DNA from: a virus | Lineage: Duplodnaviria > Heunggongvirae > Uroviricota > Caudoviricetes | DNA length: 10,133 bases | IMG/VR virus record: IMGVR_UViG_2695420701_000015 | Strand: one strand, 5' to 3' | Shown: one piece after another, positions 1 to 10,133 of the stretch | How positions within the stretch are numbered: the first letter of the stretch is position 1 | How the letters are laid out: every line of letters starts with the position of its first letter | Position numbers and translations under genes: made by a program | Notes under the pieces: model-generated | The model's input: only the letters and a program-made list of their open reading frames with translations | What the model was told of the DNA's origin: nothing | Database searches by the model: none

Positions 1-35
1 TGAGACTAACTTTTGAGACTTCTAAGGGGAACATT

Positions 36-587
36 ATGGCGATACTTGGATATTGCAGGGTGAGTACAGATGACCAATCCATCACTAACCAGCAAATGCA
101 AATTGAAGAGGCAGGGTACAACATTGCTAAATGGTTCACTGATGAAGCTGTCAGTGGTTCTGTCAAAGCTTCTTTAAGAAACGGTTTCAGCAGACTATTA
201 GCTTATGCACGAGAAGGTGACACCGTAGTTGTGGTAGCTGTAGACCGTCTTGGACGTGACACAATTGATGTGTTATCAACGGTTAAAGCGCTACAGGCTA
301 AAGGTGTGACAGTTATCAGCCTTAGAGAAGGGTTTGACTTATCAAGCGCTATGGGTGAAGCAATGTTAGGCATTATGTCAACGTTGGCACAGCTTGAAAG
401 AAGCTTGATAGCAGAGCGTAGAAAGGCTGGTATTGAACGTGCTAAAGCTGAAGGGGTACATATGGGAAGACCTGTAAAAGCTTCTTCAGAGGCTGTACAG
501 ATGCTTATTTCACAAGGTAAAACGAGGTTGCAGATTCAGGAAGAGCTAGGAATCTCTAGAGCAACTTATTACAGACTTGCTAAATAA
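36..587 (+). CDS. Small serine recombinase (resolvase/DNA-invertase family), 183 aa
   Basis: Complete ORF. N-terminus MAILGYCRVSTDDQ carries the catalytic-serine motif of small serine recombinases; VDRLGRD motif; C-terminal HTH-like [13 protein letters not shown]-like AAGGGGA about 6 nt upstream of the ATG. Confidence 0.9.
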   Translation: MAILGYCRVSTDDQSITNQQMQIEEAGYNIAKWFTDEAVSGSVKASLRNGFSRLLAYAREGDTVVVVAVDRLGRDTIDVLSTVKALQAKGVTVISLREGFDLSSAMGEAMLGIMSTLAQLERSLIAERRKAGIERAKAEGVHMGRPVKASSEAVQMLISQGKTRLQIQEELGISRATYYRLAK

Positions 588-776
588 GTTACTGAATAGT
601 TACATGGATGTAGCTGATATTTGGCTTTTTTGCCAAGGGGGTCACATAGCTGGTGTGACGGGTACTAAACACGTATACATCATGAGGTAGATTCTACCGA
701 ATCAACTAGACAGATATTTTCGAAGATTCGGGGAAGATGAGATTCAAAGAGGGCTAGTCATTTTTTATAAAAAATT
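198..776 (+). repeat. Copy A of the recombinase-3'/downstream module (3' part of the gene plus about 190 bp downstream)
   Basis: Direct repeat of 777-1356. The first 80 bp downstream of the stop (588-667) are identical in all three copies and contain palindromes TTGGC-T6-GCCAA and GTCACA-N7-TGTGAC. Copy A has a distinct 44-bp patch (668-711). Confidence 0.85.
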
Positions 777-1164
777 AGCTTATGCACGAGAAGGTGACAC
801 CGTAGTTGTGGTAGCTGTAGACCGTCTTGGACGTGACACAATTGATGTGTTATCAACGGTTAAAGCGCTACAGGCTAAAGGTGTGACAGTTATCAGCCTT
901 AGAGAAGGGTTTGACTTATCAAGCGCTATGGGTGAAGCAATGTTAGGCATTATGTCAACGTTGGCACAGCTTGAAAGAAGCTTGATAGCAGAGCGTAGAA
1001 AGGCTGGTATTGAACGTGCTAAAGCTGAAGGGGTACATATGGGGAGGCCTGTAAAAGCTTCTTCAGAGGCTGTACAGACGCTTATTTCACAAGGTAAGAC
1101 GAGGTTGCAGATTCAGGAAGAGTTAGGAATCTCTAGAGCAACTTATTACAGACTTGCTAAATAA
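777..1164 (+). pseudogene. 5'-truncated second copy of the serine recombinase gene (C-terminal about 129 codons only)
   Basis: nt 777-1164 align to nt 200-587 with 5 substitutions (4 synonymous, 1 Met->Thr). The catalytic N-terminal domain is absent; ORF-track ORF 808-1164 starts at an internal Met. Confidence 0.8.
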
Positions 1165-1356
1165 GTTACTGAATAGTTACATGGATGTAGCTGATATTTG
1201 GCTTTTTTGCCAAGGGGGTCACATAGCTGGTGTGACGGGTACTTAGCAGCTACAGACATCTGTCAGATATTTTTGAAGATTCGGGGAAGATGAGATTCAA
1301 AGAGGGCTAGTCATTTTTTATAAAAATTTTCAGACTCTGAAAAGTTACTGTACAGA
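777..1356 (+). repeat. Copy B of the recombinase-3'/downstream module (tandem, head-to-tail with copy A)
   Basis: Junction at about 774-777, where ...TTTTATAAAAAATT joins AGCTTATGCACGAG (gene position about 200). Downstream part 1165-1356 matches 3491-3684 almost exactly. Confidence 0.85.
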
Positions 1357-1508
1357 ATATATACAGATATCTTTAAAGTATCTGTAAAAACTTTTAAGAT
1401 AAAAGATAGATATCCCAGAAAGGATATCCGTTTAGAAAACCTGTTAAGTATCTCTTAAAAGAGAGTAAACCTTGTCAAGAGTGATTGCAATAAAAATTTT
1501 TATTTCTT

Positions 1509-2171
1509 ATGTCAATTGAGCATATTTTAATCGGGAAGCATCATGGGGGTTCTGATTACTGGAGAACTCCATTTTTGTTATTTAAGAACTTACACCGTGA
1601 ATTTATTTTCAGTCTAGATGGTGCTGCAACTGAGCATGACACGCTGTTACCACGATTCACCGATGATATAAGCCGTCAATCATGGGTTAGTGAAAAGGTC
1701 TTCTGTAACCCGCCGTACAGCGATATTCCGTCGTTCCTCTTAAAAGCGTCTGAAGCGGATTTAGTAGCTTTCCTGATACCGCATAGAGCCAACACCAGCT
1801 ACTGGCTTAGGCACATTTACAGCAATAACCACTGTCATGAAATCCGTATTCTTCATCGTGCAGTTAAATACCTTCCACCAGCAGGGCATAACAGGCTTAC
1901 TATTAGGTCACCGTTTCCAAGTGCAGTCGTTGTTTTTAAAAAAGAACCACGTAAGCATGAAATTACACAGATGGTTTGCTGTGCTGATACATTGCTACCG
2001 TTAACCATCATTAACCGTGGTGGACTAAGAGGAAGACCCACCATTTACCCACCTGAGACGCTCGACAGCTTCATAAAACTATACAGGCAAGGAAAACCCA
2101 TTAAGTACATTGCAGATGCTCTCAGAATGCCTCTGAGCACGTCATACAGGATTGCTCAAAGGTTGAGCTAA
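1509..2171 (+). CDS. DNA N6-adenine methyltransferase, phage Dam-like family, with C-terminal HTH-like extension (220 aa)
   Basis: Motifs DYWRTP, LDGAA and FCNPPYSD (NPPY catalytic motif of amino-methyltransferases) in the order typical of the phage Dam family. C-terminal about 45 aa (KPIKYIADALRMPLSTSYRIAQRL) resembles a resolvase-type HTH. No adjacent restriction endonuclease gene is visible. Confidence 0.75.
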   Translation: MSIEHILIGKHHGGSDYWRTPFLLFKNLHREFIFSLDGAATEHDTLLPRFTDDISRQSWVSEKVFCNPPYSDIPSFLLKASEADLVAFLIPHRANTSYWLRHIYSNNHCHEIRILHRAVKYLPPAGHNRLTIRSPFPSAVVVFKKEPRKHEITQMVCCADTLLPLTIINRGGLRGRPTIYPPETLDSFIKLYRQGKPIKYIADALRMPLSTSYRIAQRLS

Positions 2172-2275
2172 AATTCTCATAAATATGGTCATTTACAAGA
2201 CAGGTGATTCAGATGTTAAGAAGTATCCCCGTGAACAATAAATGACCAATCAGTAATCATTCTGTGAAATAATTG

Positions 2276-2304
2276 TTGCAATTTATAATCACATCTGTTA
2301 TAGT
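2276..2304 (+). promoter_or_regulatory. Candidate sigma70 promoter (TTGCAA-17 bp-TATAGT)
   Basis: Hexamers and 17-bp spacing read directly. It lies about 230 bp upstream of the 2535 ORF, so the assignment is tentative. Confidence 0.3.
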
Positions 2305-2534
2305 TTCTATATGGGCTGATAAAAAAGTTCATGTCTTGAAGTGGTAACACTTGGGGAGGTGTCAGATGGTTGGCGTATATTAACCTCTCATTCAGGGTAT
2401 ACCTCAGCGTTTTAATCATCGTACTGTTTCAGGCATGGACTTCTTTATCAGTCCATCAATCCCCCAGATATTTTAATCACACAGGCTAATCGGTTTTATC
2501 CGGTTGGCCTTTTCACGTATGAGGTAATTTATGA

Positions 2535-2924
2535 ATGTCTAAATATAACCCAAATCAGTTTTATAAATTTGATGTGCGAATCTCTCAACTTTCAGAAGAA
2601 ATTAACGCAGCAGCAAGATTGATTTATATGGTCATGGTCCATAGCTGTGACTTCTATGAAGAGAAATACAAATCATATTCACCAAGTATTGACCATCTCG
2701 CTTATATGGCTGGTGTATCAAAGAGAACAGCAATCAGAGCCATTGAGACACTTGAGAAACACGGTTTAATTCAGGTGCAAAAGAATCAGGGGCGTCAAAG
2801 CACTTATCGTGTATTCACACTGGATGATAAGCCGGAATTACTTGTAAGACCTACATCACAGGAAGTTGCAGCCTCAGTAAGACAAAATGACACCACTACC
2901 AGTGACAAAATGTCATGGGGGTAG
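2535..2924 (+). CDS. Winged-helix DNA-binding protein, possible replication-initiator or regulator N-terminal part (129 aa ORF)
   Basis: Segment LAYMAGVSKRTAIRAIETLEKHGLIQV is HTH/winged-helix-like. GAGG lies 10 nt upstream of the ATG. The ORF stops at a TAG (2922-2924) between two 15-bp repeats, and the coding signal continues in another frame. Confidence 0.5.
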   Translation: MSKYNPNQFYKFDVRISQLSEEINAAARLIYMVMVHSCDFYEEKYKSYSPSIDHLAYMAGVSKRTAIRAIETLEKHGLIQVQKNQGRQSTYRVFTLDDKPELLVRPTSQEVAASVRQNDTTTSDKMSWG

Positions 2925-3138
2925 TGACAAAATGTCACCCGTGTTAGAGTTAGATAAGTTATTAGATAAAACATTAGATAATAATATTACAGATAAGAAT
3001 AAAGAGACTGGACTTAATGATGATATTAAAGAAGATGACTTTCTTTCTTTGGATGAATTAAATGATTTTCTCTCTATGAATGAATCTGACCTTGAAGTAA
3101 GCTCTAAAAAGGGTGATGCTGCCAACTTACTGATTTAG
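2887..3138 (+). pseudogene. Acidic C-terminal continuation of the rep-like gene in a shifted frame, 3'-truncated by IS1
   Basis: ORF 2887-3138 re-reads the second 15-bp repeat as SDKMS, the same peptide ORF 2535-2924 reads from the first repeat. Its last 9 codons (GDAANLLI-stop) are encoded by the IS1 left inverted repeat, so the native 3' end is missing. Confidence 0.35.
2901..2937 (+). repeat. Two exact 15-bp direct repeats AGTGACAAAATGTCA, 22-bp period, each containing the palindrome TGACA-N3-TGTCA
   Basis: Read directly: copies at 2901-2915 and 2923-2937. The 7-bp spacers differ (TGGGGGT versus CCCGTGT). Confidence 0.9.
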
Positions 3139-3450
3139 TGTATGATGGTGTTTTTGAGGTGCTCCAGTGGCTTCTGTTTCTATCAGCTGTCCCTCCTGTT
3201 CAGCTACTGACGGGGTGGTGCGTAACGGCAAAAGCACTGCCGGACATCAGCGCTATCTCTGCTCTCACTGCCGTAAAACATGGCAACTGCACGCATTATG
3301 GGCGTTGGCCTCAACACGATTTTACGTCACTTAAAAAACTCAGGCCGCAGTCGGTAACCTCGCGCATACAGCCGGGCAGTGACGTCATCGTCTGCGCGGA
3401 AATGGACGAACAGTGGGGCTATGTCGGGGCTAAATCGCGCCAGCGCTGGC
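3112..3450. mobile_element. IS1 remnant: intact left terminal inverted repeat, insA with internal deletion, start of insB; right part absent
   Basis: GGTGATGCTGCCAACTTACTGAT at 3112-3134 matches the IS1 left inverted repeat as I recall it. The following sequence encodes the InsA N-terminus ([41 protein letters not shown]). About 85 bp appear to be missing after 3291 relative to canonical IS1 (from memory). IS1-like sequence stops at 3450. The segment is visibly more GC-rich than its flanks. Confidence 0.8.
3167..3334 (+). pseudogene. insA: insA remnant (GTG start), frameshifted by the internal deletion
   Basis: Translation from GTG at 3167 gives the InsA N-terminus and then diverges after ...KTWQL into [14 protein letters not shown]-stop. 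The InsA C-terminal peptide [21 protein letters not shown] is encoded in a different frame. Confidence 0.7.
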
Positions 3451-3451
3451 A

Positions 3452-3684
3452 TAGGAATCTCTAGAGCAACTTATTACAGACTTGCTAAATAAGTTACTGA
3501 ATAGTTACATGGATGTAGCTGATATTTGGCTTTTTTGCCAAGGGGGTCACATAGCTGGTGTGACGGGTACTTAGCAGCTACAGACATCTGTCAGATATTT
3601 TTGAAGATTCGGGGAAGATGAGATTCAAAGAGGGCTAGTCATTTTTTATAAAAATTTTCAGATTCTGAAAAGTTACTGTACAGA
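3452..3684 (+). repeat. Copy C of the module: last about 13 codons of the recombinase gene plus downstream region
   Basis: TAGGAATCTCTAGAGCAACTTATTACAGACTTGCTAAATAA and the following about 190 bp match 549-587 and 1165-1356. It begins abruptly inside IS1-derived sequence. Confidence 0.85.
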
Positions 3685-4630
3685 TTTTGCACAATCCTAC
3701 CAAACCTCATAGTTGATTCGATTAGAAGCTAATCTCATAGAAAGCTCTGTAGCGAGTTTTAACCCCATTTTTAGGGGTAACCTATAGGGATGTACTAACC
3801 ACCTTAAAATAAAGGGGTAAAATCGCTTAGAATGCGTTACAGAGCGTCTGAGAAGCCATATTCACAGATTTTACTAAAACCTCAGACTTCTAAGTAGTCT
3901 TTTAACAGGAGGGGTTCCCCTATGGTCACATATCCCCTCTCTTTCCACTAAGTAAGCCTTAGCAGCACCTAAGCAACAATTGACTAACAGATTCGGTAGA
4001 GTCTATCTCATAGGTCAACTTCATAAACTCAGAGCTAAGTTACCTTGAAAGATTCTACCAAGAACTACACAGGTGTTATTTAGTCTGACTGTGAAGGGAT
4101 ATTTAACGGGAGAAGAGATACGATATAACCCGAAGGGAGAGTATCATCTTAACAATTATCTTAAGAATAAAACTGAAAAACTCTTAACAGATAACCACCT
4201 AGAAAGAAGGGAACGATAAGACCAGAGGTAGTGACCTGTTAAACAGGCTGTTTCAAAGTCTCTTAAAAGTCTGTTAAGTAAGGTCATGTGAACAATCTTA
4301 CCATTTTGTCAATGCTTTTGTCTTTGACCTAAATCAATAAAATGTATCGTTTGATATGCTTTTAAACAAAATAGCTAAAAAATCTTTTTTTAGAGGGGCG
4401 CTTCGCTTGGGGTCACTATGAATGATTTTTCTCTCGCTAAGAGAGCGCTTACAGAGGTCTTTCAAATCTCAATAGCCAGCCGAGGAACACAGGAAACCGA
4501 GGGAAGAAAAACTATTGTGATTACCTTGAACAAGGTCTGTAAAGGTCGTTTAAGAGGTCGGTTAAGAAAGGAGCTTCCCTCTCTGGGGTTATCGCTCTTC
4601 TCCCGATTAGTGGGGCGGTTAAGGGGGCTT

Positions 4631-4812
4631 GAAGTTATCTGTGAAGGTACTGGACAGTCTTATATATTGGGTGATTACAACTCGTTGAAAAATAAGCATT
4701 TTTAGAAGTTACTGTTAAGGTTGCAGAGTTGTCTGTGAAGAGACTTGTCAGTTCTCTATATATGGCTAATTACAACTTATTGAAAAATAAGAACTTTTAG
4801 AAATTACTGTCA
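4631..4812. repeat. Two imperfect tandem direct repeats, about 94-bp period
   Basis: TCTGTGAAG...TTGAAAAATAAG(C/A)A(T/C)TTTTAGAA(G/A)TTACTGT occurs twice, starting at 4638 and 4732, roughly 80 percent identical by eye. Confidence 0.8.
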
Positions 4813-4945
4813 GAGAGGTGAATGCTTGATAGACACAGCTTTCCGGTTCTGTCAAGCTATTTTTTAATAGATAGCACAAAATGCTAAAGACACCCCTGTA
4901 CCATAGACTTCTATCTGTCATCTCGTGCAGGGGTTTTGAAGGAGT

Positions 4946-5122
4946 TTAACGGGGGTCTGTGTGGTCGTTATCCTTAAGGTCAAGCGTCCATGTACGACCG
5001 AACAGTTTAAAGACAACAAGCACTCTGACGAGGACGTAGCGAAGTAGCAGGCCTGCAATCAGCCCAATACCTCCACCAGTCCATACATCAGGTGACCCCA
5101 GCTCAGGAGGGAGATTTACCAT
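4946..5122 (-). CDS. Candidate small membrane protein, 58 aa (MVNLPPELGSPDVWTGGGIGLIAGLLLRYVLVRVLVVFKLFGRTWTLDLKDNDHTDPR)
   Basis: Internal Met of ORF-track ORF 4946-5278 (-). AAGGA RBS 6 nt upstream on the minus strand. One predicted transmembrane helix with a charged C-terminus. The palindromic element 5137-5234 lies immediately upstream. Confidence 0.35.
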   Translation of the reverse strand: MVNLPPELGSPDVWTGGGIGLIAGLLLRYVLVRVLVVFKLFGRTWTLDLKDNDHTDPR

Positions 5123-5136
5123 TAGTTTTCCTTGTA

Positions 5137-5234
5137 AGACGCTCTCAATCGCATTCTGACACAAAAAGTACCTGACCTTATGAGTTGACCTGAAGAGGTC
5201 GTTTAACTCGTTACAGGGCGATTGAAGAGGTCTG
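5137..5234. repeat. Palindromic repeated element, copy 1 (terminal inverted repeats AGACGCTCTCAATCGC / GCGATTGAAGAGGTCTG)
   Basis: Both terminal arms are shared with copy 2 at 6765-6886; the central part differs. It sits immediately upstream of the RBS of the minus-strand small ORF. Confidence 0.8.
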
Positions 5235-5336
5235 TGTGCAATGCAAAATATGCGACCAAATACATAGCCACGCCTCATATTTTACTCTCCCCATAAACCC
5301 ATTATACCACAGATGTTACGAAAATGTTAAAAATAC

Positions 5337-5365
5337 TTGACATTAGTCTTTGAAAATGCTAATAT
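5337..5365 (+). promoter_or_regulatory. Candidate sigma70 promoter TTGACA-17 bp-TAATAT
   Basis: Consensus -35 and near-consensus -10 with 17-bp spacing, about 50 nt upstream of the 5417 ATG. The -10 is followed by TGTATATAT, as at the 7320 promoter. Confidence 0.55.
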
Positions 5366-5416
5366 TGTATATATAGGTTAACAGAATAATAACATCTTCT
5401 GAGAGTCAGAACATGA

Positions 5417-5974
5417 ATGCAGTATTCAGAATTTAGAGCGATGCTTCAGGCATCAAGAGAACGCAACAAGCACAACTCCTACGCTTACACAAACAACCCC
5501 ACCAGCTACGAAGTCCCAACCTTTAGCAAATCCGAACGTAAGAACATTGAAGCGGTCATTCGTAGCATTACGCCACGAGACAGATTTATGCCAGTACGCA
5601 AAACAACAAAGAATACTATTAAAAATTATCTGGCTAACTTTGACAGTTACGAGCAGTTACCAAGCAAGCTTGATGATGTTTTTATTGGGTTCTGTAGAAG
5701 TGAAGGCCACCCGAAATACAACAAAAAACTATTTTATCTGCTAAAGAATCTTGACGAAATTAACGCATCCACCGTGACAAATCATCTTCAGCGACAGGCA
5801 ACCAGACTTAGTTACGAATTACCAAGCGATAAATATTGCGCTTTGCTTGCTGTGATGTGCGCGAAATTAATTGGCATTGTTGAACATCATATTGCCGTTG
5901 GGAATATTGAGCCAATGGAAAACGAGCAACCAGATTTCGAGTTTGACCCCTATTTAGTTACAGAGGATTTTTAA
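5417..5974 (+). CDS. Hypothetical protein, 185 aa, acidic C-terminus
   Basis: Long ORF downstream of the candidate promoter; first gene of a run of tightly abutting ORFs. No family recognised. Confidence 0.7.
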   Translation: MQYSEFRAMLQASRERNKHNSYAYTNNPTSYEVPTFSKSERKNIEAVIRSITPRDRFMPVRKTTKNTIKNYLANFDSYEQLPSKLDDVFIGFCRSEGHPKYNKKLFYLLKNLDEINASTVTNHLQRQATRLSYELPSDKYCALLAVMCAKLIGIVEHHIAVGNIEPMENEQPDFEFDPYLVTEDF

Positions 5975-6253
5975 ATGAATAAACACACATTAACCAGAGT
6001 TACAAAGACAGCCTTTGATGAACTGAACCGAATCAAAAACATTACAGGTCTGCCACACTCAGCAGTGATGAAGCTTGCAATTAACCGTGATATTAACGAA
6101 CAGGATTTGCTTAATAGTCGCTTAGAGGCTGCAAGACACCATATCAGGATTAAGCAAGATGACCTTGATAGTCTGAAATCCTTAAATGCTTTTGGACTGG
6201 ATTTAGCAAGGTTACTAAGTATCAAAATTCACAAACTGTCTCAGGAGGTCTGA
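5975..6253 (+). CDS. Hypothetical small protein, 92 aa
   Basis: ATG immediately follows the upstream stop (TAAATG); GAGGA lies upstream. No family recognised. Confidence 0.65.
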   Translation: MNKHTLTRVTKTAFDELNRIKNITGLPHSAVMKLAINRDINEQDLLNSRLEAARHHIRIKQDDLDSLKSLNAFGLDLARLLSIKIHKLSQEV

Positions 6254-6255
6254 TT

Positions 6256-6528
6256 ATGAAGCAATGGCGAGATGATATTAAACGGTTCTTTGCAACTTAC
6301 TTCATGATTAATTATGAGACAGGAATGCTTGAATGGATTGATGGTGGAGAGGTTAAGACAAGAGATGATGCTTACGGTAATCCAATGATTCGTTATGGCA
6401 CTCGTGATTATTATCTGAAGTATGTCATCTGGTTTTTGCATCATGAAGTTCAGGCAACTAAAAAGATTATCTTCAGGGATGGTAATAAAAGAAATTGCCA
6501 CCCAAACAATTTACTCCTGGAGATTTAA
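6256..6528 (+). CDS. Small protein with degenerate HNH_3-like motif, 90 aa
   Basis: AGGAGG RBS 7 nt upstream. C-terminal half (YLKYVIWFLHH...IIFRDGNKRNCHPNNLLL) resembles the HNH_3/NUMOD4-type pattern (HRxVW...IDHIDGNxxNNxxxNLRL), but the DH of the catalytic motif is replaced by FR. Confidence 0.6.
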   Translation: MKQWRDDIKRFFATYFMINYETGMLEWIDGGEVKTRDDAYGNPMIRYGTRDYYLKYVIWFLHHEVQATKKIIFRDGNKRNCHPNNLLLEI

Positions 6529-6728
6529 TGTTATGTATTAAATTCGAATATTTGACAGATAAAATGATTAAGCATGTATCAGACCTGCTCATCAAAGAAG
6601 GTGGTTTCGGTGATGCTTGCAATCCAAAAGATATCTTCATTCATGCCACCAGCCCAAACGCAACACTAAAGACAGCAGTTACAGCGGAATGGTTTGAACG
6701 AAATAAAGCGGAATTAGGTTATTGGTAG
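6528..6728 (+). CDS. Hypothetical small protein, 66 aa (ATG start; the ORF track extends to 6495 via a TTG)
   Basis: ATG overlaps the upstream stop (TAATG), indicating translational coupling. Confidence 0.55.
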   Translation: MLCIKFEYLTDKMIKHVSDLLIKEGGFGDACNPKDIFIHATSPNATLKTAVTAEWFERNKAELGYW

Positions 6729-6764
6729 TCCGAGACTTTAAGAGAAATTAGAAAAACAGCTTAT

Positions 6765-6886
6765 CAGACGCTCTCAATCGCATTCTAACGCAAAAAACTA
6801 TCTTATTTTAGGGTGGGTAATACCACTGTACAGGCTACCCCTGAAAAAGACTGTTTAGCTCGTTACAGAGCGATTGAGGAGGTCTG
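6765..6886. repeat. Palindromic repeated element, copy 2 (CAGACGCTCTCAATCGC ... GCGATTGAGGAGGTCTG)
   Basis: Same terminal arms as copy 1 and an internal palindromic core. It ends about 20 nt before the ATG of the 6907 gene on the plus strand. Confidence 0.8.
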
Positions 6887-6906
6887 GTAAAAAGGAGATT
6901 TTAAAA

Positions 6907-7230
6907 ATGAACGAATATGAATTACAGATTTTCATTGATAGCGACACTGCTATGATGGTGCAGGCTTTCGCTGATTCCGGTGTATCAATTGACCTTGATA
7001 AATTACTAAAGCTAATGGCTGAAAACTCAGAAGAAATTGAAGACTTTATTCAGGAAATTGAAACTGGTGAACCGCGTTTTATGTTTCCTGTTACCGACTC
7101 AAACATGAAGCGTCTTATTATCGAAGAAACGAACAAATACAGCGTTAGCCCTGAAAAATATCTCAAGGCGGCTATAGCAATTTTGTATAGCGATAATATT
7201 CTGGTGACGGATTCGAAGGTGGTGCATTAA
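6907..7230 (+). CDS. Hypothetical acidic small protein, 107 aa (ATG at 6907; the ORF track start at 6874 is a TTG inside the repeat element)
   Basis: AAGGAG RBS 9 nt upstream of ATG 6907. Asp/Glu-rich. Confidence 0.7.
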   Translation: MNEYELQIFIDSDTAMMVQAFADSGVSIDLDKLLKLMAENSEEIEDFIQEIETGEPRFMFPVTDSNMKRLIIEETNKYSVSPEKYLKAAIAILYSDNILVTDSKVVH

Positions 7231-7295
7231 TGGAATTGGTGATTATCTGTTTTGTATTGATTGGTATGATTGCAGGTGCATCTATTAAAGTATAA
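7230..7295 (+). CDS. Candidate 21-aa hydrophobic peptide MELVIICFVLIGMIAGASIKV
   Basis: ATG overlaps the stop of the 6907 gene (TAATG). Almost entirely hydrophobic, roughly one transmembrane span. Too short for the ORF track. Confidence 0.35.
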   Translation: MELVIICFVLIGMIAGASIKV

Positions 7296-7319
7296 ATGTT
7301 ACCAATCTGTTAAAAGCTG

Positions 7320-7348
7320 TTGACAAACAACCTTGAGCATGACATAAT
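7320..7348 (+). promoter_or_regulatory. Candidate sigma70 promoter TTGACA-17 bp-CATAAT
   Basis: Consensus -35 with 17-bp spacer, followed by TGTATATATGG as at the 5337 promoter. Confidence 0.5.
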
Positions 7349-7357
7349 TGTATATAT

Positions 7358-7385
7358 GGGGAGAGCAATTCTCTCTTATTTTTTC
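7358..7385 (+). terminator. Intrinsic-terminator-like hairpin (GGGAGAG-CAATT-CTCTC followed by TTATTTTTTC)
   Basis: Short stem followed by a T-run, 63 nt after the stop of the 7230-7295 ORF. It could terminate the 5417-7295 operon or attenuate transcripts from the 7320 promoter. Confidence 0.5.
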
Positions 7386-7516
7386 TTTCAATAATCCGAT
7401 GGATGGATATTCTGAGTTGGAAAGGTGCAATGCTTTTCGTCCTAGCCTTTCAGGTTGGTCTGAGAGGCTATCTCAAAAAGTCTTTGTTCATTCATTATTG
7501 AATCCTTTACAGCTTT

Positions 7517-7544
7517 GCCCTAATCATGAGTTAGGGCTTTCTTT
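7517..7544 (+). terminator. Hairpin GCCCTAA-N7-TTAGGGC followed by TTTCTTT
   Basis: Perfect 7-bp stem plus T-rich tail, read directly. Confidence 0.4.
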
Positions 7545-7613
7545 AAGAGTTTTTAAACAGAGCTTTTAAAGAAAGTTTTCCTGAAACTTCGTTAACGTTA
7601 TAAGCAAACCTCC

Positions 7614-7646
7614 AAAGCCCTTCACAGATTATGTTTAGGGCTTTTC
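7614..7646 (+). terminator. Hairpin AAAGCCC-N17-GGGCTTT with T-rich tail
   Basis: 7-bp stem read directly; shares the TTAGGGCTTT motif with the 7517 hairpin. Confidence 0.35.
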
Positions 7647-7717
7647 TTAATAGAGCATCTTTAATAAATCGTTAAGTCATCTTCTAAGTGTATTGGCGTT
7701 GAAGGTGCTCTATTAAG
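7646..7717 (+). promoter_or_regulatory. Perfect 12-bp inverted repeat CTTAATAGAGCA / TGCTCTATTAAG separated by 48 nt, just upstream of the RBS of the 7745 gene
   Basis: Read directly. The right arm ends 14 nt before AGAGG (7732-7736). Function unknown; could be an operator pair or a leader RNA stem. Confidence 0.5.
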
Positions 7718-7744
7718 AAATAACCACACTTAGAGGAAATTATA

Positions 7745-8455
7745 ATGACAAACGATTTATATATTAACGGTAAAAAGGTTGATAGCTTCGGAGACTGGTC
7801 ACCACAGGGTGAACATCCGCTACATACTATTCAGCGTCAAGAGCATGACAAGCGCATTGAGCTTGAGCAAGAGCTAAAGATGTCACCAAAGGTAATTTCC
7901 TTTGTGTCTCCTGAGCCTCAAGAAATGCCTGATATCTGCAAAACTGAAGCACTATTTGAGCTTGAGCGTGAATATTACCCAGCTTTAAAATCACAGCGTC
8001 TTAGACTTGATGTCGCTTACGATGCTGTTAAGAACTTCGAAGAAACCTCGAAACCTTCAGAATATGATATTGCTTACGAGATTAAGTCAAACCCGTTTAT
8101 CTATTATGAAGGAAACTTTAATGATGGTTTTGGTACAGCGATTGAAGACGTTCCTAAAGTTCTTCAAAGTATCCCTGAAGGGTTCCGGTTAATTGATGTC
8201 AGACAAGCATTAAGGGGTTCTGGTCAATTTATTCTGATGACTGATAAAACAGATGAAGAGATTCTTCAGTTAGCTGAAGCTAATTTGACTAAGCATTATT
8301 CCGGTAAACTGGATAAGTTAAAGCAAAAGCTTAAAAAAGAACTTGATACTATGAAAGAACTTGTTAGTGAATATGAGTCGCAGAAGAAGATTGCTTTGAT
8401 GGCTGATATTGAGCAGTTAACGAAGATTTCTCAGAAGTATAGCAAGGCTGTTTGA
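7745..8455 (+). CDS. Hypothetical protein, 236 aa, helical and charged C-terminal third
   Basis: AGAGG RBS 8 nt upstream. No family recognised. C-terminus rich in K/E/L, suggesting coiled coil. Confidence 0.75.
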   Translation: MTNDLYINGKKVDSFGDWSPQGEHPLHTIQRQEHDKRIELEQELKMSPKVISFVSPEPQEMPDICKTEALFELEREYYPALKSQRLRLDVAYDAVKNFEETSKPSEYDIAYEIKSNPFIYYEGNFNDGFGTAIEDVPKVLQSIPEGFRLIDVRQALRGSGQFILMTDKTDEEILQLAEANLTKHYSGKLDKLKQKLKKELDTMKELVSEYESQKKIALMADIEQLTKISQKYSKAV

Positions 8456-8477
8456 TTATGAATTAAAGAGGTGATTA

Positions 8478-8687
8478 ATGTTTGAAGAACGTTTAGAGAC
8501 TATTCGGTCTGTTTGTGAAAACTTAAAGTTACAAACTAAGCCAGCCTTAAGAATTAAAAACAAACGTCAAGTTATCACCTCACACAAACCAAAAACACGC
8601 AAGATTCCAAAGTGGTGTATTGACCGTATTCCTTCTGATGCTCAAATCATAGGTGAAACGGAATTACATTATCTTGTCCGACATTAA
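8478..8687 (+). CDS. Hypothetical basic small protein, 69 aa
   Basis: AAGAGG upstream of the ATG; Lys/Arg-rich; followed by a terminator. Confidence 0.6.
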   Translation: MFEERLETIRSVCENLKLQTKPALRIKNKRQVITSHKPKTRKIPKWCIDRIPSDAQIIGETELHYLVRH

Positions 8688-8710
8688 AAAAGAATTGGTT
8701 GGGTAAATAC

Positions 8711-8753
8711 GGGGAGAGATTATCGAGTGACATCGGTAGCTCTCCCTTTTTTT
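8711..8753 (+). terminator. Rho-independent terminator (GGGGAGAG ... CTCTCCC followed by T7)
   Basis: GC-rich inverted repeat (loop about 21 nt) immediately followed by TTTTTTT, 24 nt after the stop of the 8478-8687 ORF. Confidence 0.65.
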
Positions 8754-8843
8754 GTATGTGTGCTACGTGAAATCTGTAAAGCTAATACCCACACTGAAAA
8801 ATAGAATTTACGTACAACACGCTTAAAGAGGTGAAAAATATGA

Positions 8844-10121
8844 ATGGCACAATTTAAAGTTGATGATTTTCTGATTGAGTTAAGTTTTAACTCTCAGAAA
8901 GTTTTAAAAGGCTTGGAAAAAGCCGAGAAACAAACGATGCAGGTAGCATCACGAATTGAGAAGCGATTGAATAAGTCGTTTAGAGTTAATCCTACGCCTT
9001 TAAATGATTCTCTCAAACTAATGGAAAGAAATGTCGATAAAACTGTTTCCAAGATTGAGCAGCGTCTTAAAAACACTAGAGCGTTTAAGATTAAAACTGA
9101 AATTGAGGATACTTTAAAGCCACTTAGACAACCAAGACAGCCACGAATTAGCGGAAGCAGAGCAATCACAGCAGCTTACTCAGCGAATATGAGCAAGCTT
9201 CGTGACTTTAATCCTATGCTTGAGAAGTATTTTAAAAGCCAGTATTACAGCTTAAGCAGTAAATCCAAGACACTTGGAAACGAAACTTTTAATCGTGAGT
9301 TAGCAAAGTTAAATCAGTCTCTTCGTGAAACACTTTCTAAGTTTAACAAGACCACCAGCAAAAATAATCACAGTGAAAATGCTTCAAATAGTCTGGATGT
9401 ATTAGCTACGAGTGCAATCAAAGCAGGTACAGCCATTTATAGTTTTCAGACAGCCTTAGAAGCTTACAGGCGGATTATGGAGGTTGGTCTGAAAAAAGAA
9501 GCATCACAACGAGCGGCACAATTCGTTTTAGGTGATGAAGGTGCTAAACGAGCTACAGAATTTGTTAAGAATCTTGCTGATAGTAGTGGTGTAGACCAGA
9601 TTGAAACATTAAGCAGTTTTGCTAAGTTTTCCGCTGGTGCTGGTGATATGAATGCAGACCAGAAAGAATCCTTATTTTCTAATGTGATTGGTACATCCAG
9701 ATTAATGGGGCTAAGCACCGATGAAATTAACGGGATTTTAAAAGCTTTCGAGCAGATGGCATCTAAAGGAAAGATTCAGGCTGAAGAGCTACGCGGTCAA
9801 TTAGGTGACAGAATGGCAGGTGCTTTTCAGTTATTTGCCAGAAGTCTTGGGATGACTACGGAAGAATTAGACAAGGCCATGAAAGACGGTAAGGTTCTTT
9901 CTAAAGATGTTCTTCCTAAAGTATCCGCTGAAATGGGAAGGATGATTGATAAAGCTGGTGGATGGGAAAAGATTATTAACTCTACTCAGACGCAGTTAGG
10001 CCGCTTAAGTAATTCATGGAATAATAATCTGGCCTTAATGTTCGATGGTTCACAGGAAGGTTTAACAGACTTTACAAGGTCACTGACTAATTTACTTAAT
10101 TCACTAAATAGCTGCGCTTAA
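8844..10121 (+). CDS. Tape-measure-domain protein, 425 aa
   Basis: AAAGAGGTG RBS 10 nt upstream. Residues about 290-380 (GILKAFEQMASKGKIQAEELRGQLGDRMAGAFQLFARSLGMTTEELDKAMKDGKVLSKDVLPKVSAEMGR) match the conserved phage tail tape-measure N-terminal-type domain pattern as I recall it. Predicted helical N-terminal half. Complete ORF with TAA at 10119-10121. Confidence 0.8.
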   Translation: MAQFKVDDFLIELSFNSQKVLKGLEKAEKQTMQVASRIEKRLNKSFRVNPTPLNDSLKLMERNVDKTVSKIEQRLKNTRAFKIKTEIEDTLKPLRQPRQPRISGSRAITAAYSANMSKLRDFNPMLEKYFKSQYYSLSSKSKTLGNETFNRELAKLNQSLRETLSKFNKTTSKNNHSENASNSLDVLATSAIKAGTAIYSFQTALEAYRRIMEVGLKKEASQRAAQFVLGDEGAKRATEFVKNLADSSGVDQIETLSSFAKFSAGAGDMNADQKESLFSNVIGTSRLMGLSTDEINGILKAFEQMASKGKIQAEELRGQLGDRMAGAFQLFARSLGMTTEELDKAMKDGKVLSKDVLPKVSAEMGRMIDKAGGWEKIINSTQTQLGRLSNSWNNNLALMFDGSQEGLTDFTRSLTNLLNSLNSCA

Positions 10122-10133
10122 TACCGCTACACT

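Follow-up and report, generated by a model that had tools for sequence, protein, structure and literature searches.

The 10,133-nt stretch of DNA analysed here (the window; IMG/VR record IMGVR_UViG_2695420701_000015) carries on its minus strand a short open reading frame that is almost certainly a real gene for a membrane protein. The reading frame forms a monocistronic unit, directed leftward, in an integrative island; its position there is fixed, it is a core gene of the island and not a roaming cassette, and its product represents a narrow enterobacterial ORFan family. The best explanation, advanced tentatively and with nearly even confidence, is that the protein serves as an oligomerising inner-membrane effector of the island under transcriptional control, and not as the toxin of an RNA-antitoxin pair.

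The small reading frame and its product

The gene and its ribosome-binding site are placed as follows:

4946-5122, minus strand: coding sequence of a 58-aa single-pass membrane protein, stop codon included (open reading frame calling, conservation and helix prediction)
5129-5133, minus strand: Shine-Dalgarno sequence AAGGA, separated by a 6-nt spacer from the ATG (read from the sequence; AGGA/AAGG core kept in all leader variants)

The frame runs from an ATG at 5122-5120 to a TAA at 4948-4946 and encodes MVNLPPELGSPDVWTGGGIGLIAGLLLRYVLVRVLVVFKLFGRTWTLDLKDNDHTDPR (58 aa). Mechanical calling gives a longer frame of 110 aa from an ATG at 5278, which was considered as the gene and rejected: the upstream extension is not conserved, with ATG 5278 changed to ATA and frameshifting indels in homologues, and the 58-aa start is therefore the right one. 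Both the Shine-Dalgarno sequence and the ATG at this start are kept in every leader variant and homologue. Annotation should call the 58-62-aa frame and not the 110-aa one.

The frame is intact in all 28 related loci (given here as L numbers) from Shigella, E. coli, E. albertii and Citrobacter. A set of 19 loci, each with a different DNA version, has the frame open throughout, with lengths of 58, 61 or 62 aa and with indels of 3 nt and 12 nt that are all in frame. Variable sites among the 19 DNA versions are distributed over the three codon positions as 21/6/33, and pN/pS is 0.14-0.30; against Citrobacter and other distant copies, dN/dS is 0.17-0.33 at pS up to 0.6, and overall it is about 0.15-0.3. 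The Citrobacter copy retains 57% amino-acid identity, and the replacements in the family are conservative (V/F, L/I, K/R, T/S).

The protein contains one hydrophobic helix, GGGIGLIAGLLLRYVLVRVLVVF, at residues 16-38. Its Kyte-Doolittle maximum is 2.29 (19-residue window, residues 19-37), within a family range of 2.2-2.3, and AlphaFold2, run on a shallow alignment, returns a single helix over residues 11-52 with a mean pLDDT of 72. The flank on the N-terminal side of the helix is free of K/R, with a net charge of -2, and that on the C-terminal side has four K/R; the N-terminal 15-18 residues are acidic and lack K/R, and the C-terminal tail of about 20 residues is rich in K/R, from which an N-out/C-in orientation is predicted. 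The 58-aa sequence, as read, has neither a cysteine nor a lipobox. The helix harbors a glycine zipper of the form small-xxx-G-xxx-G together with invariant arginines R28 and R33 and Y29, and the residues invariant across the family include G17, G18, G20, A23, G24, R28, Y29 and R33. A preliminary description of this DNA had proposed, from the letters alone, a small membrane protein gene: a 58-aa minus-strand frame preceded by AAGGA as ribosome-binding site, its product having a single hydrophobic helix and a charged tail, to be checked by conservation of the frame in homologous regions. Each of these proposals agrees with the present results, namely the conserved frame under purifying selection, the kept start codon and ribosome-binding site 6 nt apart, the hydropathy, the predicted helix and the four K/R of the C-terminal flank.

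Searches of Pfam, NCBIfam, PHROGs and PADLOC gave no match to the reading frame, and those of Pfam were extended to E = 10 with three divergent members. The Hok/Gef Pfam profile was not matched under the same conditions, nor was there a match in NCBIfam, and the earlier statement that the sequence does not resemble Hok, Ldr, TisB or Ibs is correct as far as Pfam families can tell. When 1.84 billion representative proteins were searched exhaustively with a profile, 17 matches at E<=0.001 were obtained, nearly all of them close relatives or fragments of the same family, and none of the 17 led to a known family. The exact 58-aa peptide is recorded as 'hypothetical protein FORC11_2023' of Shigella sonnei, PGAP labels the 58-62-aa form 'hypothetical protein' in many genomes, and a literature search found no paper that mentions the peptide or its WP accessions. 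The protein is thus already in the databases as 'hypothetical' and is an uncharacterised addition to a known class, the small membrane proteins of mobile elements. Such proteins are under-annotated, and are often found to serve as toxins, as regulators of lysis or in phage exclusion. Every copy of the present one bears the label 'hypothetical', although about 7% of complete E. coli genomes carry the island.

The island around the gene

Homologues of region 4700-5450 were found in 403 of 5,426 complete E. coli genomes (about 7%) at 80-99% identity, with 446 placements on chromosomes and none on plasmids. A plasmid or phage origin was considered and rejected, since the region had no megablast match among plasmids or phages; the plasmid setting assumed in the preliminary description therefore does not hold, and the locus is chromosomal. 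Similarly, tblastn of the peptide and of the neighbouring 185-aa protein against phages gave no match. A counterpart 100% identical to this 185-aa neighbour is present on more than 1000 S. sonnei contigs, from which the island appears to be fixed in S. sonnei and the window is most likely part of an S. sonnei chromosome. In strain EcPNK006 the small reading frame lies within an insertion of about 11 kb between ymdF and wrbA, and in WCHEC025985 the same island splits yecE, with further copies near yciI and elsewhere.

The core layout of the island consists of the small reading frame pointing leftward, a divergent operon pointing rightward and a large serine recombinase on the opposite strand at the far end, the last being replaced by a tyrosine integrase in the relative L025. 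The operon begins with genes for proteins of 185 aa, 92 aa and, in some islands, 60 aa, followed by an HNH endonuclease or a 128-aa alternative and a 107-118-aa protein; further along come genes for a 236-aa and a 67-69-aa protein, and then for tape-measure (TIGR02675, PF20155) and Dit-like (PF21821) proteins. The 236-aa protein is labelled 'transposase' by PGAP, a label for which no profile match was obtained in this analysis. The small reading frame occupies the same place in every island examined, in synteny with the 185-aa gene and the island core, and this holds for E. coli, E. albertii, Citrobacter and the island with a tyrosine integrase. Among the loci examined it was never found as an independent cassette outside the island.

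Annotation and profile scans revealed no capsid, portal, large terminase or lysis genes in the island. The presence of tape-measure and Dit-like genes without these functions makes it look like an undescribed phage-satellite-like element, as judged from its gene content. According to a recent preprint, satellites are not known to encode tape-measure proteins, the exceptions being one proposal for PLE11 and the mycobacterial EPIPs (PMC12822802). A literature search found no description of an island at yecE/wrbA that carries either a serine recombinase or a tape measure, and the surrounding island may be a more unusual object than the small protein itself. Knowledge of the protein's role would help to explain how a compact island that has tape-measure and Dit-like genes, and neither capsid nor terminase, deals with its host and with phages.

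Several further observations concern the left side of the island. The window (1-10133) is the left part of an integrative island of about 11-12 kb, the extent of which can be seen at L019 1638-12099, L021 651-12078 and L025 722-12194. A small serine recombinase resembling DNA invertases (183 aa) is encoded at 36-587, and a partial duplicate of its own 3' two-thirds lies at 808-1164; among islands the recombinase gene is found at the left end in either orientation (for example, L008 versus L012), a sign that the left end may invert or rearrange. Positions 1509-2171 encode an orphan Dam-type methyltransferase fused to a resolvase-type HTH, positions 2535-2924 a truncated N-terminal domain similar to HTH_36 or replication initiators, and positions 3094-3450 hold an IS1 remnant 97-98% identical to IS1A. 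The cargo on this side differs among strains, some of which have an AP2/HNH gene in its place.

Promoters and candidate roles of the protein

The signals that bound the transcription unit and its divergent neighbour are:

5301-5330, minus strand: sigma-70-type promoter of the small reading frame, TTAACA, 18 nt, TG-n-TATAAT, with an extended -10 (11 of 12 matches)
5313-5330, minus strand: operator-like bipartite repeat TTAACA-N6-TAACAT over the -35 element and spacer of this promoter (26 of 26 loci)
5337-5365, plus strand: divergent promoter of the rightward operon, TTGACA, 17 nt, TAATAT (conserved in the alignment)
5378-5395, plus strand: second TTAACA-N6-TAACAT, inverted, between the rightward promoter and the 185-aa gene (26 of 26 loci)
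4892-4934, minus strand: hairpin just past the stop codon of the small reading frame, CCCCTG.AC / GTACAGGGG (folding, alignment)

The leftward promoter is kept in all homologues except L016. In that locus (3069-4282, an EHEC-type lineage), the promoter and 5' leader have given way to IS1203, after which come lambdoid prophage genes, and the 62-aa frame is intact. The repeat, of general form NTAACA-N6-NTAACA(T/A), is present as one copy at each of its two positions about 65 bp apart, with conserved half-sites and a variable N6. This pattern resembles the signature of a protein operator common to both arms, and the presence of the twin repeat in the leader of the divergent operon suggests that one DNA-binding protein probably governs both. 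Control of the gene at the level of transcription through these repeats is somewhat more likely than not. Should the rightward operon encode the binding protein, the small gene could be on at rest.

The hairpin past the stop codon folds at -18 kcal/mol (z -1.19) in the form found in the window and at -16.8 kcal/mol (z -3.65) in that of L014. Its U-tract on the strand of the reading frame is poor, and a different sequence takes its place in L018, L020, L023 and L025. The window and L012 share a 17-nt insertion in the loop, and a better T-run follows the hairpin on the opposite strand (GGGGTTTTGAAGG). The element is possibly a weak or bidirectional terminator, which may terminate transcripts arriving from the left at least as well as that of the small reading frame. 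Compared with a moron, the unit has a strong conserved promoter and a hairpin 3' of the stop; the hairpin has a poor U-tract and is replaced in some islands, and the gene belongs to the core and is not an add-on.

In the explanation that we favor, expression of the small reading frame would be set mainly at transcription, from a near-consensus promoter whose -35 element and spacer lie under TAACA-N6-TAACA, and one DNA-binding protein would control both the leftward gene and the divergent operon. The protein would oligomerise in the inner membrane and perturb it on behalf of the island, in the manner of Kil, holins or LidI, and host killing, altered lysis timing or abortive infection could be the outcome on induction. 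A membrane-perturbing role is possible though somewhat doubtful. Against the explanation as a whole stand the lack of a family, fold or partner match for the protein, the basis of the operator reading in sequence symmetry and conservation, the absence of recognisable endolysin or lysis genes from the island, and signs of RNA-level control (in codons 2-14 and a purine tract of the leader) that it leaves unused.

Two groups of known proteins serve as points of reference for such an effector. LidI of the Vibrio cholerae satellite PLE is a 66-aa transmembrane protein, previously unannotated, that lacks known domains and is conserved across PLE variants (PMC7182436); it is undetectable without phage infection, is detected in infected cells, and alters lysis timing (PMC7182436). 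The present protein is likewise a small transmembrane protein without known domains, encoded by a compact integrative element and conserved across its variants; LidI acts on the membrane and on lysis timing. However, the host, the helper and the gene content of the two islands differ, similarity in sequence would not be expected, and the satellite status of the island described here is putative. Holins and prophage Kil-type proteins share with it the small size, the single transmembrane helix and the charged C-terminal tail; its charged residues and glycine zipper would suit oligomeric membrane lesions, and its promoter, probably early and operator-controlled, would also be in keeping. Unlike genes of these groups, it resides in an island without endolysin, spanin or lysis cassette, and it has neither a conserved dual start nor a family match.

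The main rival, which we regard as unlikely, holds that the gene encodes a non-toxic inner-membrane protein, made while the island is quiescent, that acts in superinfection exclusion or injection blocking. Such a protein would prevent the entry of incoming phage or satellite DNA, for example by disturbing tape-measure-mediated channel formation, as proposed for HK97 gp15. In that precedent, gp15 is a small protein of the inner membrane expressed by a prophage, and its exclusion of an incoming phage depends on the tail region of the latter (PMC3594210). As with gp15, of the YebO family, the protein studied here has a predicted inner-membrane topology and is encoded by a seemingly self-contained, moron-like unit of promoter, gene and hairpin in a phage-related element, with its own near-consensus promoter; it is transcribed in what may be termed the maintenance direction, opposite to the main operon, and the island itself encodes tape-measure and Dit-like proteins, which would supply a functional link to tail-mediated DNA entry. 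Expression at rest, as outlined above for a binding protein made by the rightward operon, would also favor this role. Nevertheless, the small protein shows no similarity to YebO/gp15, to a Pfam family or to any other exclusion family, and its gene is a fixed core gene near the regulatory region and not a moron in a tail operon. Moreover, the operator-like repeat that overlaps its promoter is shared with the divergent operon, which suggests co-repression and not constitutive expression, and the arginines and glycine zipper of the helix would seem a better fit to formers of pores or oligomers.

Leader, palindromic repeats and conserved downstream DNA

The elements upstream of the gene and their relative in the rightward operon are:

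5123-5294, minus strand: predicted 5' leader of the small reading frame, about 172 nt here (transcription start placed from the position of the -10)
5131-5234, no strand assigned: palindromic repeat copy A, optional, inside the leader (repeat search, folding, genome counts)
6760-6886, no strand assigned: palindromic repeat copy B, intergenic in the rightward operon (arms 89-94% identical to copy A)

The part of the leader that is common to all loci is its first 60 nt or so, comprising the purine tract, a hairpin at 5252-5271 and UUUUGCAUUGCACACAG. Leaders fall into length classes of 75-76, 121-124, 172-176 and 205-227 nt, and the differences are due to two optional inserts, a hairpin of 48 nt and a palindrome of about 100 nt. 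The leaders of about 75 nt, which are without the palindrome, occur in E. albertii (L022), in Citrobacter (L023) and in L014, L020 and L025. No Rfam match was found anywhere in the window, the leader included.

Upstream of the gene the preliminary description had seen a palindromic leader. The palindrome is real: the minus strand at 5131-5236 folds at -33.2 kcal/mol (z = -4.26), and none of 200 shuffled sequences folds as well. However, it is an optional repeat, absent from about half of the islands; copy A was counted in 220 genomes against 403 with the region, and it is missing from L003, L014, L017, L018, L020, L022, L023, L025, L027 and L028. It is very probably dispensable, and we infer that it is an accessory, island-specific repeat and not a required regulatory leader. 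Its identity as a dispersed MITE was considered and rejected, as it occurs only inside the island, at one to three places per genome (median one).

Copy B folds at -48.6 kcal/mol (z = -5.36). Copies A and B have the same orientation in the DNA and are transcribed in opposite directions, and RNA from the plus strand of copy B would consequently be complementary to the leader of the small reading frame, at 5137-5167 and 5201-5234, with a perfect core of 21 nt (E = 2e-7). The two copies are inherited independently, since islands with both, with either one and with neither are all found; both copies are absent from the Citrobacter island and from those of L020, L022 and L025. As obligate toxin-antitoxin partners the copies were rejected, because all four combinations of presence and absence occur. 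Copy B is 98-100% identical in most carriers (92-93% in L014 and L024) and is more conserved than its flanking genes, and it is missing from several islands in which the 128-aa gene replaces the 60-aa gene and the HNH endonuclease (L009, L011, L029).

A broader reading, to which we assign little probability, joins these elements into one scheme. In it, the small protein would be a membrane effector, acting in lysis manipulation, abortive infection or exclusion, of an undescribed family of enterobacterial satellites with their own tape-measure and Dit-like tail proteins. The unit would be the maintenance arm of these satellites, made up of the TAACA-operator promoter, the reading frame and about 1 kb of conserved non-coding DNA, and its mRNA would be cross-regulated by pairing with copy B where both copies are present.

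A type I toxin-antitoxin module is a weaker rival than the exclusion role, and we consider it quite improbable. It would consist of a membrane-depolarising peptide and of an RNA antitoxin that, together with structure in the leader, restrains the peptide's mRNA; the antitoxin could be an undetected antisense RNA or, in islands with both palindrome copies, the copy-B hairpin of the rightward transcript, pairing just upstream of the Shine-Dalgarno sequence. The loci of this kind, Hok/Sok, Ldr/Rdl, TisB/IstR-1, Ibs/Sib, ShoB/OhsC, DinQ/AgrB and ZorO/OrzO, resemble the present one in the short single-helix peptide, the mobile element and the long leader, and also in some complementarity of the mRNA's 5' end to the beginning of the coding sequence. 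The protein, at 58-62 aa with a single predicted membrane helix, is of the size and hydrophobicity of type I toxins, the upper end of whose size range it occupies. Complementarity of the copy-B plus-strand RNA to the leader, with its perfect 21-nt core, also speaks for such a module. So do two features of the mRNA itself: the 5' purine tract can pair with codons 3-6 (14 of 20 variants), a purine/pyrimidine-tract complementarity without clean covariation, and codons 2-14 show a deficit of variation at the third position (2/13 versus 31/48, Fisher p = 0.0035). These last two features hint at some RNA-level control outside the best explanation; alternatively, they could reflect chance complementarity of the tract and mosaic recombination.

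The remaining evidence runs against a type I module. The sole strong complementarity, that of copy B to copy A, is not co-inherited with the small reading frame, and some islands lack both copies. No antisense promoter in or around the reading frame and leader is positionally conserved across the 19 loci, promoter scans being weak tests that could miss an unconventional RNA, and complementarity in trans between the translation-initiation region and the 650 nt downstream has energies within the range of shuffled sequences except in one or two loci, and is not conserved. A conserved mok-like overlapping frame was not found, as the in-frame upstream extension decays. In ensemble folds of 20 variants the Shine-Dalgarno sequence and AUG are mostly unpaired, and sequestration of the Shine-Dalgarno sequence by the leader, which was considered, is not predicted. 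Thus, relative to the known loci, the gene has neither similarity in sequence or profile (to Hok, Ldr, TisB, Ibs, Fst or another family), nor a conserved promoter for an sRNA, nor a conserved complementary partner; its ribosome-binding site is predicted to be open, its leader, ranging from 75 to 227 nt, is conserved in neither length nor content, and it has never been seen as an independent cassette outside the island. The Hok-like arrangement suggested earlier can accordingly be set aside, given the optional palindrome, the lack of a conserved antisense promoter or complementarity, the accessible Shine-Dalgarno sequence and the lack of a family match, and the protein should not be annotated as a Hok-like toxin. 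What is excluded is the Hok-like architecture only and not toxic activity.

Downstream of the small reading frame on the minus strand, about 1 kb (approximately 3900-4904) contains no annotated gene in any genome and is conserved, with 70% identity over 613 nt to Citrobacter and 75% over 829 nt to L025. A hidden open reading frame was considered there and rejected, all frames carrying stops in distant homologues, as was a large structured RNA, since consensus folding energies are weak on both strands. This neighbour, conserved though non-coding, and the first 42 nt of the small reading frame, nearly invariant as DNA, would suit the view that the frame is incidental to a conserved regulatory RNA or DNA site and that no protein is made, but that view can hardly be credited in the face of the codon-position bias of 21/6/33 toward positions 1 and 3, conservative replacements, indels in frame only, a dN/dS of 0.2-0.3 at pS 0.4-0.6, the Shine-Dalgarno sequence and ATG kept in every variant, and the stops that the truly non-coding neighbour gathers in all frames.

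The conserved 1 kb may function as an origin, in packaging or recombination, or as a non-coding RNA. It contains local hairpins, one of which has a UUCG loop and compensatory-looking changes, and four TGTTAA motifs in a symmetric arrangement (4149-4154 and 4184-4189 on the minus strand, 4237-4242 and 4272-4277 on the plus strand; spacings 35/53/35). The same hexamer occurs in the operator-like repeats, and 8 of the 15 TGTTAA sites in the window lie within 3900-5400. The non-coding region also includes a tandem repeat of about 95 bp (4633-4715 and 4727-4810; 85% and 77% identity over two sub-blocks), of which two units are present in most E. coli-type islands and one in L012, L015, L020, L023, L025, L028 and L029.
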